From assembly GCF_016903815.1 (NCBI RefSeq), contig NZ_CP069973.1: a stretch of DNA of 64,000 nucleotides. One strand, written 5' to 3'. The number at the start of each line of letters is the position of its first letter. Position 1 is the first letter of the stretch. Below, in pieces: positions 36,604 through 61,451 of this stretch. The stretch is from Escherichia coli (GTDB taxonomy: Bacteria; Pseudomonadota; Gammaproteobacteria; Enterobacterales; Enterobacteriaceae). The translations under genes and the position numbers were made by a program. Under the pieces are notes generated by a model. It searched no databases and had not been told where the DNA came from. It saw only the letters and a list, made by a program, of their open reading frames with translations.

Positions 36604-36777
36604 TTAAAACAGTGAAAACAACAGCGCCACCGGGAAACTCATCGGCCATGTTGCCCCCACCAGAAAGGCGCTTAAGAAACGGATGCGTTTCTTATCGTGA
36701 GAAAGAAACCAGGTGATAAGAAATGAGATTGCTGCCATAACCGCATAAAAAACAAGCATATGTTGATAGAGAGACAT
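36604..36777 (-). CDS. ortT: Orphan membrane toxin OrtT (YdcX)
   Basis: 57 aa from MSLYQHMLVFYAVMAAISFLITWFLSHDKKRIRFLSAF..., internal Met of the track ORF. Confidence 0.7.
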   Translation of the reverse strand: MSLYQHMLVFYAVMAAISFLITWFLSHDKKRIRFLSAFLVGATWPMSFPVALLFSLF

Positions 36778-37163
36778 GTACGGGCGTCCAGCCAGATGAA
36801 TAAAACGCGCGCAAATATGCGTCATTTTTTGACGTACATCAAGTTTTTTAACCGGTTTGAGAAAAAAACATCAAACAGCAACTTGCCCTTATCCATCTTC
36901 AGAATGAGTATTATTGCGGATTTTCTTAACCCGTACTATACACATAGGGGCAATGATAAAAGGTGGCAAAAATGAATGTTTCCAGTAGAACTGTAGTACT
37001 GATAAATGTCTTTGCTGCTGTTAGTTTGTTTACTCTTATCTCTATGAGATTTGGCTGGTTTATTTGATGTAGTGATTTTGCACGCAGCACGTACTGTCAG
37101 AGAAATCAGTGCTCTGACAGTACGCAAGATCTTCTCATACTCTTACGATCTGCAATATTATCC

Positions 37164-38588
37164 TTAATGTTTAACCATGACGTGGCGGACGACGGTGTAA
37201 TCCTCCAGCCCATAAAGTGACATATCCTTGCCGTAACCAGAAAGTTTCTGCCCACCGTGCGGCATTTCACTTACCAGCATGAAATGGGTATTGACCCAGG
37301 TACAACCATATTGCAGCCGCGCGCTGACGCGATGCGCCCTGCCCACATCTTTCGTCCATACCGAGGATGCAAGTCCATACTGGCTGTCATTTGCCCAGTT
37401 TACCACCTGTTCTTCATTGTCGAAGAGCGTAACACTCACTACTGGACCAAATACCTCTTTTTGCACGATGGCATCGTCCTGTAATGCGCCAGCCAGTAGC
37501 GTCGGCGCATAGTAATAGCCATTACCCTTGCGCTTTTCACCGCCAGTGATCACTTTGATGTGCCCTGTCGCTTTCGCCTCTTCTACCGCCTTGCTGACGC
37601 GTTCGAGATGCGCCAGCGAACTTAAAGGTCCAAGCTCCGTAGAGTCGTCATCCGGCGCACCCGATTTTAACGTTGCCACTGCAGCACCAAGTTTTTCCAC
37701 CAGCGTATCGTAAATGCCTTTTTGCGCATAGATCCGACAAGCCGCTGTACAATCCTGTCCGGCATTGTAATAGCCAAAAGTACGTACACCTTCGACCACC
37801 GCTTCAATATCCGCATCATCAAAAACTATCACTGGCGCTTTGCCACCAAGTTCCATATGAGTACGCTTTATGGACGGCGCGGTATGGCTGATGATGTGCT
37901 CGCCGGTGGCGATAGAGCCCGTCAGCGACACCATCCGCACTTTGGGATGACCGGTCAGCGGATCGCCCACCGTTTTGCCTCTGCCAAACAGTACGTTAAT
38001 CACGCCTGCCGGGAAGATATCTTTCGCCAGCTCTGCCAACTTCAACGCGGTCAGCGGGGTAATTTCTGATGGTTTAAGCACTACACAGTTCCCTGCCGCC
38101 AGCGCCGGAGCCAGTTTCCACGCGGCCATCATCAGCGGATAATTCCACGGTGCGATCGAAGCCACGACCCCCAACGGATCGCGACGGATCATCGAAGTAT
38201 GACCTTCAAGATATTCACCTGCCGCCAGACCATTCAGACAGCGCGCCGCACCAGCGAAAAAGCGAAAAACATCGACAATCGCCGGGATTTCATCATTGAA
38301 CGCACTATGCAGCGGTTTGCCACAATTACGGGACTCCAGTTCGGCAAAAACCTGACCATTTTCTTCGATAACATCAGCCAGTTTCAGCAGACATTCCGCA
38401 CGCACTTTCGGCGTGGTTTGCCCCCATTCGGCAAATGCTGCATCTGCCGCGCGCACAGCAGCATCGACCTGCTCTGCGGATGCCTCGGCAATCTCCAGTA
38501 AAACGTCCCCCGTTGCCGGATTATAGACAGGCTGTTTTTCCCCTTCGCCGCTAACCAGTTCTCCGTTAATCAGTAACTTATGTTGCAT
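37164..38588 (-). CDS. patD: Gamma-aminobutyraldehyde dehydrogenase
   Basis: 474 aa; aldehyde dehydrogenase family; [27 protein letters not shown]. Confidence 0.9.
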
Positions 38589-38609
38589 AGCATATTCCTG
38601 TATCAGTGG

Positions 38610-39404
38610 TTATTGACCATTGTCGCCTTCGCGGGTTAGCCACCAGGCCCCCAGGATCGGCAAGGTTGTTACCAACATAACCAGCAGTGCCACCACGTTG
38701 GTTACCGGTACATCACGCGGTCGCCCAAGCTGATTGAGCAACCACAACGGTAACGTTCGTTCATGACCTGCCGTAAAGGTCGTCACGATGATTTCATCGA
38801 ACGACAAGGCAAACGCCAGCATTCCTCCTGCCAGTAACGCCGAACTGAGATTCGGCAACACTACGTAGCGGAAGGTTTGCCAGCCATTGGCCCCAAGATC
38901 CATTGACGCCTCAACCAGACTCCACGAGGTGCGGCGAAAACGGGCGATGACATTGTTAAACACCACAACTACACAAAAAGTCGCATGACCGACCACGATG
39001 GTGAAAAATCCCGGCTCCAGATTGATGGTTTTAAAGGCGGTTAACAACGCCAGACCAGTGACAATGCCCGGCAGCGCAATGGGCAGCAGCAGTAACAGCG
39101 AAATGGCGTTTTTGCCGAAAAAGTCTCGTCGCCACAGCGCGGCAGCGGCCAGCGTCCCTAACACCAGCGCCATTAATGTCGCCAGCGCCGCCACTTTAAG
39201 TGACAGTGTCACGGCATCAAGAATATCACTACGCTGTGCTGCCACGCTAAACCAGCGCAGCGTCAGGCCCTGCGGTGGAAAACTAAACGCCGCATCTTCA
39301 GTGTTAAACGCATAGGCGGCGATAATCAGGATGGGAAAATGTAGGAAAACCACGCCGCCCCAGGCCGCCAGTTTGAGGAAAAACGGTGCGCGTTCAGAGT
39401 GCAT
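38610..39404 (-). CDS. ydcV: ABC transporter permease
   Basis: 264-aa membrane protein; in operon with ydcSTU. Confidence 0.85.
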
Positions 39405-40335
39405 CGAACGCTCCCAGACGTTTCACGAACGCCAGGTACAGTGCGATGAGAACAATCGGCACCAGGGTGAATGCCGCCGCCATCGGCATATTGCCAATCG
39501 CTCCCTGCTGGGAATAAACCATATTGCCGATAAAATATCCTGGAGGGCCAACCAGCTGCGGAACAATAAAATCGCCCAGTGTGAGTGAAAAGGTAAAGAT
39601 AGAGCCAGCGGCAATACCAGGGATTGCCAGCGGCAGCACCACATAGCGAAAGGTTTGCCGTGGACGCGCGCCAAGATCAGCCGACGCCTGCAACAATGAC
39701 GGCGGCAAACGCTCAAGCGCCGCCTGCACGGGCAGGATCATGAACGGCAGCCAGATATAGAGAAACACCAGAAAGCGCCCCAGCCCGGAAGTTGACAGCG
39801 TATTGCCGCCCACCGCAGGTAATGTAAGGAACGCAGTCAGCAGTGGTTCCAGCCCAAGATGTTGTAAAAACCACTGAGCCACGCCATCTTTTGCCAGCAA
39901 TAACGTCCAGGCATAGGCTTTAACAATGTAGCTCGCCCACATCGGCAACATTACCGCAATATAAAAAAACGCTTTCATTTTCCCGCTGGTATAGCGCGCC
40001 ATATACCACGCCATTGGAAAAGCCAGAATGGCGCTGGCGATAGTGACTGCCACAGCCATAGTCAGCGTGCGGAGAATGATGTCGTAATTCGCCGGATTAA
40101 ACAGCGCACGGATATTCGCCAGCGTCAGTTCCGGCGTTACCGACATGGTGAAATCGTCAAAGGTATAAAATCCCTGCCATAACAGTGTCAGCAGCGAGCC
40201 GAAATAGACAATGCCAAACCACATTAGCGGGCCAAGCAGCAGTAAAAACAGCCCCAGCCCCGGATTACGCCAGAAGAAACCGGACACCTTACCCAGACCT
40301 GGACGTGAAGGTGATTGCAATACATTCATCGCCAT
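39394..40335 (-). CDS. ydcU: ABC transporter permease
   Basis: 313-aa membrane protein. Confidence 0.85.
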
Positions 40336-60658: not shown

Positions 60659-60939
60659 TACCGTTGTCTCTCGTCCAGGTTTACTCCTGATAGAAAGTCA
60701 TCGGCACTTGACGATAATTACTTATGACCAAAAACCTCTTTGCGTCACATTTTTACAACAATTATTGCAGAGAAAATTAATGCTATTGGAATGAAGAGAG
60801 TAACGAATGGCTAAACTGGCTAACCCGAATGACGAAAAATTCTGGAAAACAGCACGCAATTTCGTCAGGTGATTATTTTCGTCCCTAAGGAAACCACATA
60901 GGATGCTCACGGGTGCCTGAGACTTTCTGTTTTCAGGCT

Positions 60940-61010
60940 AACCGGGAATCAGAAAGACGAAGGCCCCGACCGATATTTCTATCAACCGAGGCCAACGAAT
61001 GAACCAAGCA
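60940..61010 (-). ncRNA. sokB: Probable SokB antisense RNA (coordinates approximate)
   Basis: Inferred from the hok/sok architecture: antisense to the mokB leader and start region; not read directly from a recognisable sequence. Confidence 0.35.
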
Positions 61011-61166
61011 ATTCAGATGTTAGCCTCTTACCCGCCATCCGGCAAGGAGAAAGGCTATGAAGCGCAACCCTCTGTTGGTGTGTCTGCTCATTATCTGCAT
61101 TACGATTCTGACATTCACACTCCTGACCCGACAAACGCTCTACGAACTGCGGTTCCGGGACGGTGA
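60999..61166 (+). CDS. mokB: MokB, overlapping regulatory ORF of the hokB locus
   Basis: Hand-translated 55-aa ORF overlapping hokB in another frame. Confidence 0.6.
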   Translation: MNQAIQMLASYPPSGKEKGYEAQPSVGVSAHYLHYDSDIHTPDPTNALRTAVPGR

Positions 61167-61206
61167 TAAGGAGGTTGCTGCGCTCATGGCCTGCACGTCC
61201 AGGTAA
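61057..61206 (+). CDS. hokB: HokB type I toxin (small membrane peptide)
   Basis: Hand translation: MKRNPLLVCLLIICITILTFTLLTRQTLYELRFRDGDKEVAALMACTSR*; RBS AAGGAGA upstream. Confidence 0.85.
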   Translation: MKRNPLLVCLLIICITILTFTLLTRQTLYELRFRDGDKEVAALMACTSR

Positions 61207-61277
61207 GGGCAAGCGCGGGGATTTTCCCCGCGCATCTGACTAGCAGATTCATTTTCTCATGGCACCCCTTTTACACT

Positions 61278-61451
61278 TCAGTTAGTGCATGTTTTTTTCG
61301 ATGCACTAATAGAACCATCATTACAGACAAATTTGCCGCCTGCCGTACAGTGTGAGATCCCCCCTTTCGAACCAGAACAGGGTTTGCGCCCGGCATCGGC
61401 ATAAAAGGAAACAAGCGCTCCTATAACCAAGATGAGTGCCAATTTTTTCAT
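61278..61451 (-). CDS. ydcA: Small secreted Cys-rich protein YdcA
   Basis: Hand translation: MKKLALILVIGALVSFYADAGRKPCSGSKGGISHCTAGGKFVCNDGSISASKKTCTN*; GGAGG RBS. Confidence 0.8.
   Translation of the reverse strand: MKKLALILVIGALVSFYADAGRKPCSGSKGGISHCTAGGKFVCNDGSISASKKTCTN

Follow-up and report, generated by a model that had tools for sequence, protein, structure and literature searches.

Small toxins of several kinds have been described in Escherichia coli K-12. OrtT (YdcX) and the type V toxin GhoT are paralogues; HicA and its antitoxin HicB (b4532/b1438; crystal structure in PDB 6HPB/6HPC) are encoded in a toxin-first operon; and hokB/mokB/sokB (b4428/b1420/b4429), for which the toxicity of HokB and its mechanism are documented in K-12 work cited in (PMC12214031), is a chromosomal homologue of the hok/sok system on plasmid R1. 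The small RNA (sRNA) RydC (b4597) is a regulator of a different sort, which together with Hfq activates the cfa mRNA and is itself repressed by YieP (PMC11340327). Counterparts of all of these lie in the stretch of E. coli DNA considered here (64,000 nucleotides of contig NZ_CP069973.1, assembly GCF_016903815.1; hereafter "the window"), and an initial annotation, made from the letters of the DNA, had taken them for several small toxin modules spread over about 25 kb. As set out below, ortT, hicAB, hokB/mokB/sokB and rydC are already-known K-12 elements whose alleles in the window are ordinary and intact; we read them, with a probability of about 95%, as three independent intact small-toxin loci in the core chromosome with an adjoining, unrelated regulatory sRNA. 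Their anatomy and sequence identity can be read directly from the DNA, while the mechanisms given here are those of the experimentally studied K-12 orthologues and are worded accordingly as expectations for the window.

When the K-12 reference features were aligned to the window by blastn, all named elements matched over their full length, with no gaps and 0-7 mismatches, and every open reading frame (ORF) was open; the E-values, from 4e-33 to 0, exclude chance as the source of these matches. This alignment, which the initial annotation had proposed as a check, thus revealed no disrupted element, and the identities it had given to ortT, hicAB, hokB/mokB, sokB and RydC were borne out both by near-identity to K-12 and by family models, as was its view that these are known elements of low novelty. 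K-12 MG1655 (1.489-1.520 Mb) runs collinear with the window, though in the opposite orientation, and shares 97.8-98.1% identity with it; collinearity is broken solely by an insertion-sequence swap at 49271-49968. In megablast searches of 5,426 complete E. coli genomes, the region 36604-61451 was matched in 5,423 and was contiguous (at least 80% coverage) in 5,363; 163 records were at least 99% identical across the full 25 kb, many isolates had 100% identity over the whole of it, and strain 7/2 (NZ_CP023820.1) equals the window at 100% identity over 35104-62951. The region is E. coli core chromosome and not a mobile island. Its start at 36604 is the final base of the ortT stop codon, as the initial annotation correctly had it; the end given there, 61451, is the first base of the ydcA start codon and leaves out rydC, which starts 171 nt further on. 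With rydC included, the elements span 36604-61686, that is 25,083 bp, and the estimate of about 25 kb stands.

The most intricate of the loci is that of hokB, which comprises the following features:

60911-61272, plus strand: full-length hokB mRNA (inferred extent), with tac (60911-60922) in the 5′ leader and fbi (61255-61267) at the 3′ end
60953-61009, minus strand: sokB, a 57-nt cis-antisense antitoxin RNA, 56/57 nt identical to K-12 b4429
60999-61166, plus strand: mokB, a 55-codon leader ORF, 97.6% identical to K-12 b1420 in nucleotides and 52/55 in amino acids
61057-61206, plus strand: hokB, encoding a 49-aa pore-forming inner-membrane toxin of the Hok/Gef family, 98.7% identical in nucleotides to K-12 b4428
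61142, plus strand: site of A-to-I editing by TadA in hokB codon 29 (UAC, Y29C), within a UACG motif; equivalent to A1491986 of NC_000913.3

The locus occupies the same position as in K-12, between trg and ydcA, with the same overlap geometry and the same lengths of its products (49 aa, 55 aa and 57 nt); 460 of 471 nt are identical. HokB is placed by Pfam in HOK_GEF (PF01848; 82.4 bits against a cutoff of 22) and by NCBIfam in the Hok subfamily (NF007279; 97.5 bits against 73). It differs from its K-12 counterpart by H3R and V7L, and C9, C14, Y29 and C46 are kept; roles of the cysteines have been described (PMC12214031). The mokB frame (frame 0) overlaps hokB (frame 1) and has a GAGG 7-10 nt upstream of its ATG; the MokB protein carries L3Q, I7M and G26V relative to K-12 and found no family match in the Pfam and NCBIfam scans, as is expected of a regulatory ORF. 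For sokB, blastn aligns nt 5-57 at 100%, and inspection by eye gives nt 4 (A to U versus K-12) as the sole mismatch. Outside the genes proper, three single-nucleotide polymorphisms (SNPs) are found in the window just 5′ of the hokB mRNA start, and the putative -10 hexamer of sokB reads TAACAT, compared with TAAGAT in K-12. None of these differences in HokB, MokB, SokB and the promoter regions has a known functional consequence.

The hokB mRNA (60911-61272) folds with a minimum free energy of -145 kcal/mol, a value reached by 0 of 100 shuffled sequences (z = -6.48). In the structure predicted on thermodynamic grounds, tac is paired with fbi through 12 bp and one bulge, the mokB AUG is paired with 61250-61252 and the hokB AUG with 61185-61187, and the 3′ end of the coding region partly blocks access to the Shine-Dalgarno sequence and AUG of hokB. 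Such a predicted fold is the inert full-length form that the hok paradigm leads one to expect. SokB is likewise well structured (-22.2 kcal/mol, z = -4.50), beginning with a 5′ tail of 12-16 unpaired nucleotides, continuing into a 14-bp hairpin and ending in a U-rich tail; a terminator scan returned a hairpin with TTCGTCTTTC on the minus strand (60993 to 60962), which is the same as the SokB hairpin. By complementarity, the 5′ tail of SokB can pair with the AUG and codons 1-4 of mokB, nt 9-11 (CAU) facing the AUG, and the Shine-Dalgarno sequence of mokB lies opposite the 5′ arm of the hairpin. The fold-back pairing, the architecture of SokB and the TadA editing site known from K-12 are all kept in the window.

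If the locus works as the hok paradigm prescribes, a stable hokB mRNA of about 360 nt would be made inert by pairing of its 5′ end with the 3′ element and by sequestration of the mokB start codon; trimming of the 3′ end would then expose the initiation region of mokB, whereupon translation of mokB would permit that of hokB. SokB would pair with the mokB initiation region and thereby block translation of mokB and, coupled to it, of hokB. The 3′ trimming, the binding of SokB and the cleavage by RNase III are all carried over from the paradigm to this locus and would be expected to proceed here in the same way. Once SokB is depleted, HokB would be expected to enter the inner membrane and form pores, leading to collapse of the membrane potential, leakage of ATP and, eventually, dormancy or persistence. 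That the HokB allele of the window is toxic, and that its toxicity is neutralized by the antisense RNA, is presumed by analogy to K-12 HokB. In K-12, TadA editing at A1491986 of hokB yields Y29C (PMC12214031); the window is the same as K-12 over 61076-61235, around the editing site, and, in local and global folds alike, CGC/GCG closes the 10-nt loop that contains A61142. Our claim for this site comprises the motif and the loop position; editing of A61142, which would replace Y29 by C, would be expected to raise toxicity.

On the opposite strand, two small genes converge on hokB:

61278-61451, minus strand: ydcA, encoding a 57-aa signal-peptide-like protein of the small secreted type (NCBIfam PRK10040 equivalog)
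61184-61252, minus strand: yncP, 22 codons

Together they overlap the 3′ coding end and the 3′ untranslated region (UTR) of hokB, an arrangement common to K-12 and the window. The ORF at 61278-61451 was considered as a toxin and rejected; it is ydcA, has no toxin family match and is not part of hok/sok. The overlap of the ydcA-yncP unit (61451 to 61184, minus strand) includes both fbi and the stretch (61248-61254) that sequesters the mokB start, so that a read-through transcript could be antisense to the 3′ end of the hokB mRNA. Such a transcript might then serve as a second regulator of activation or decay of the mRNA, acting at its 3′ end beside SokB at the 5′ end; we regard this as a long shot, and we know of no experimental study of an antisense action of ydcA-yncP on hokB.

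The second locus is a type II system with its control region:

44881-45059, minus strand: upstream regulatory region of hicAB with, by homology, promoter P1 (CRP-S/Sxy) and promoter P2 with the operator hicO; 179 bp, 100% identical to K-12
44704-44880, minus strand: hicA, encoding a 58-aa type II toxin (GTG start; a ribosome-independent mRNA interferase), 99.4% identical in nucleotides to K-12 b4532
44242-44658, minus strand: hicB, encoding the 138-aa antitoxin and repressor, 98.3% identical in nucleotides; protein identical to K-12 b1438

As in K-12, hicA (44880 to 44704), a 45-bp spacer (44659-44703) and hicB (44658 to 44242) form a toxin-first bicistron on one strand, and the spacer sequence is the same in both. 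HicA is recognized by Pfam as HicA_toxin (PF07927; 30.2 bits against a cutoff of 27) and is the same as chain A of PDB 6HPB in 57 of 58 residues. Its only difference from the K-12 protein is H29R, which lies elsewhere than His23, the conserved catalytic residue of this RNase (PMC11594946); the latter is kept. HicB matches PDB 6HPB_B/6HPC over its full length (138/138, E = 8.8e-87) and contains, from the N- to the C-terminus, the Pfam domains HicB_lk_antitox (PF15919; residues 3-67) and HTH_3 (residues 88-134). HicA would cleave mRNA independently of the ribosome, and HicB would mask the active site of the toxin and repress the antitoxin-only promoter.

In the published scheme, P1 has a CRP-S site and is activated by Sxy, and HicB represses P2 until an excess of HicA lifts the repression (PMC11594946). 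Since the gene order, the spacer and the 179 bp of DNA proximal to hicA, with promoters and operator, are the same as in K-12, this two-promoter scheme very probably applies to hicAB of the window as well. Within the 221-bp intergenic region upstream of hicA, three SNPs distinguish the window from K-12 (45060, 45085 and 45099), and these adjoin yncJ.

The third toxin locus consists of a single gene:

36604-36777, minus strand: ortT (ydcX), encoding an orphan membrane toxin of 57 aa that belongs to the GhoT/OrtT family; 98.9% identical in nucleotides to K-12 b1445, 174/174 nt aligned

The longest ORF at this place would give 73 aa (36604-36825), and the reference start gives 57 aa. OrtT scores 97.1 bits against Pfam Toxin_GhoT_OrtT (PF10753; cutoff 22.1) and is the same as the K-12 protein in 56 of 57 residues, the single change being A18S; F38 and I21 are kept, F38R variants of OrtT and GhoT having been used as mutant controls (PMC4344625). 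The neighbors are those of K-12, with yncL divergent at 194 bp upstream and ydcY at 85 bp downstream, distances also described for K-12 (PMC4344625); four SNPs precede the start codon by 59-91 nt. In K-12, neither YdcY nor GhoS nor the flanking RNAs neutralized OrtT, and a screen of a genomic library yielded no antitoxin partner (PMC4344625), which is why ortT is to be called an orphan toxin and not a module; a ghoS-like ORF was not found among the ORFs and the annotation at the locus in the window. OrtT would thus be a GhoT-like, membrane-damaging peptide that acts without an antitoxin and whose control would take place at the level of expression, in stringent or folate stress. Next to it, yncL (36972-37067, plus strand; F13V and G18S relative to K-12) encodes a 31-aa stress-response membrane protein; this small gene is below the size cutoff and missing from the initial annotation, and is not known as a toxin.

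Beyond ydcA, and as in K-12 between ydcA and cybB, lies the sRNA:

61622-61686, plus strand: rydC, encoding an Hfq-dependent, pseudoknotted sRNA; 65/65 nt identical to K-12 b4597

RydC matches Rfam RF00505 over the full length of the model (92.5 bits against 48). It is neither a toxin element nor a component of a toxin-antitoxin system and is not known to be linked to the toxins. The label "toxin modules" therefore fits hicAB and the hokB locus, and has to be given up for the orphan ortT and for this regulator of cfa, which in the window, too, would activate the cfa mRNA with Hfq and be repressed by YieP. As in K-12, rydC has a perfect TATAAT (61611-61616, 6 nt before the 5′ end) and no -35 element, a combination likewise published (PMC11340327). 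A scan with the sigma-70 consensus did not return this promoter. Folding of RydC by ViennaRNA was no better than that of shuffled sequences (z = -0.69), which is expected, as the pseudoknot is beyond the model of the tool. In the promoter spacer there is one SNP, 61597 being G in the window and A in K-12. It falls within a palindrome (61595-61605; -27 to -17) that reads TTGTCATACAA in the window and TTATCATACAA in K-12; the former fits TnGTnnnACnA, which we take to be the generic pattern of GntR/FadR-type operators, and the A of K-12 weakens one half-site of this candidate operator. YieP, the repressor of rydC, is a FadR-type GntR regulator (PMC11340327).

The three toxin loci might owe their proximity to function, that is, they could form a "toxin island" whose members are co-selected or co-regulated. 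Three such loci do lie within 25 kb, and HokB and OrtT both depolarize the membrane and lower ATP and have both been tied to (p)ppGpp or the stringent response in the literature. An E. coli genome of 4.6 Mb contains, by our own estimate, about 40 toxin loci, and from this a rough Poisson calculation gives an expectation of about 0.2 loci for a 25-kb window chosen beforehand and a probability of about 0.0015 for three or more. The clustering is not significant, though, once the roughly 190 possible windows of this size and the selection after the fact are considered. Moreover, distances of 7.5 kb and 16 kb separate the loci, and unrelated housekeeping operons lie between them on both strands (ydcSTUV-patD, rlhA, tehAB, opgD and trg); they are of three mechanistically different types; and they reside in a chromosomal segment contiguous in nearly all genomes searched, not in a mobile element.

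The manner in which the loci vary points the same way. Counted as contiguous copies among the same 5,426 genomes, their distribution is as follows:

ortT: contiguous in 5,412 genomes
rydC: contiguous in 5,409 genomes
hokB locus: contiguous in 4,487 genomes
hicAB: contiguous in 4,255 genomes

About 21% of the complete genomes are thus without a contiguous hicAB and about 17% without a contiguous hokB locus. The kinds of disruption differ as well. In NZ_CP076689.1, a clean deletion of 444 bp (44481-44924) has taken out hicA together with residues 1-59 of HicB; in comparison to the intact hicAB of the window, about one fifth of the complete E. coli genomes carry this deletion of hicA and the HicB N-terminus. 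In NZ_CM136167.1, an IS150 is inserted at 60984-60986, with a 3-bp overlap, inside the sokB/hokB leader, and about 600 additional match places suggest that most of the non-contiguous hokB cases are insertions. The loci ortT, hicAB and hokB are unlinked; as the differing counts of contiguity and the different kinds of disruption show, they are lost or disrupted independently, and they do not make up one functional unit. A functional toxin island was therefore rejected, on account of the spacing, the differing types, the independent loss and the non-significant clustering, and we give it next to no credence. The population figures (hokB locus split or truncated in about one sixth of complete genomes, hicA deleted in about one fifth, ortT and rydC near universal) may aid the comparison of persistence and stress phenotypes between E. 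coli lineages.

A different objection to three intact loci is that one or more of them might be an evolutionary relic, in which the ORF is intact and yet silent or non-toxic through regulatory or missense changes. Every toxin has 1-2 substitutions relative to K-12. Among the 11 SNPs over the 471-bp hokB locus, three (60907-60909) precede the presumed 5′ end of the mRNA and one (61019) is in the putative sokB -10 hexamer; decay of hokB and hicA is common, as just described, and the other four hok loci of K-12 are regarded as inactivated (PMC12214031). Several points add to the case against our reading. The putative sokB promoter (TTGCCG-17-TAACAT, 61045 to 61017, found by eye) matches the sigma-70 consensus at 8 of 12 positions, and the sigma-70 consensus scan returned neither the sokB nor the hokB promoter, both of which are weak by eye; the ends of the hokB transcript are placed by the start of the Rfam model and the K-12 annotation; and the local hairpin at the TadA site is not distinguishable from shuffled sequences (z = -0.10). 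The changes H3R/V7L in HokB, H29R in HicA and A18S in OrtT are known from the sequence, and expression and toxicity of the loci are to be expected by homology to K-12. NCBIfam, furthermore, gave no model match for OrtT, HicA, HicB, MokB and YncP; in view of the clear matches in Pfam and PDB, this gap reflects the content of the library and not divergence.

The state of the loci speaks against decay. There are no frameshifts, stops or insertions, no substitution in a toxin affects a known critical residue, and the predicted fold-back architecture of the hokB mRNA and the shape of SokB are kept. The change at 61019, from TAAGAT to TAACAT, leaves the match to the consensus equal, the hicAB control region is the same as in K-12, and many independent isolates share these alleles, as the 163 records of at least 99% identity over 25 kb attest. 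A relic among the three is therefore unlikely in our judgment, and the loci of the window are best regarded as intact.

As all four elements are textbook features of E. coli K-12, they carry little weight for discovery, and the practical value of the analysis lies in annotation. In RefSeq/PGAP, strain 7/2, which is 100% identical to the window over this region, is listed with ortT ("orphan toxin OrtT"), hicA, hicB, hokB and the 22-aa yncP; features for mokB, sokB and rydC are missing. The initial annotation had described its elements as easy to miss in automated annotation, which is true of the latter three and does not apply to the four genes ortT, hicA, hicB and hokB. A further problem arises with Rfam, whose model RF01794 ("sok antitoxin") scores 111.5 bits (cutoff 59) at 60911-61062 of the plus strand, a match that terminates in the AUG of hokB. 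This match is the sense-strand leader of the hokB mRNA and not the 57-nt antisense SokB; annotation driven by Rfam consequently mislabels the leader, and both the strand and the length of sok come out wrong. When Rfam was run permissively over 36000-62500, it yielded no further credible RNA; one microRNA match was spurious. Directly after the stop codon of yncJ, at 45333-45372 on the minus strand, there is a sub-threshold match to naRNA4, which is derived from repetitive extragenic palindromic (REP) sequences (30.9 bits against 59.5, E = 0.056); this is probably a REP element.

The insertion sequence that interrupts collinearity with K-12 is a copy of IS200C (49257-49969, 709-713 bp) at the junction of ydcO and ydcL, with tnpA at 49366-49824 on the minus strand; a match to Rfam STnc490 (49834-49957, minus strand) corresponds to the 5′ UTR of the IS200 transposase gene. 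K-12 carries the 1.7-kb IS609 at exactly this site, and in O157:H7 the site is empty. The junction looks like a hot spot for the IS200/IS605 family. IS200C at this site was found in only 89 of the 5,426 genomes and is a lineage marker. Strain 7/2 has an additional IS200C in narY (9140-9852 of its own stretch, L003; window position about 9850), which the window does not have, so that the window derives from a close relative of this strain and not from the strain itself; because of this extra copy, the annotation coordinates of strain 7/2 that correspond to window positions 1-9850 are offset by 711.

Outside the 25 kb, in the variable part of the window, a polymorphic-toxin module of the vgrG/Rhs type is encoded on the minus strand (19425-26204), which does not figure among the toxin modules of the initial annotation. 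Its coordinates were taken from the annotation of strain 7/2, which has 1 mismatch to the window over 9851-36603. The module comprises vgrG (24096-26204), the gene of an Rhs core protein (19824-24029) and, downstream of these, a small ORF (19425-19823) that is likely the immunity gene.

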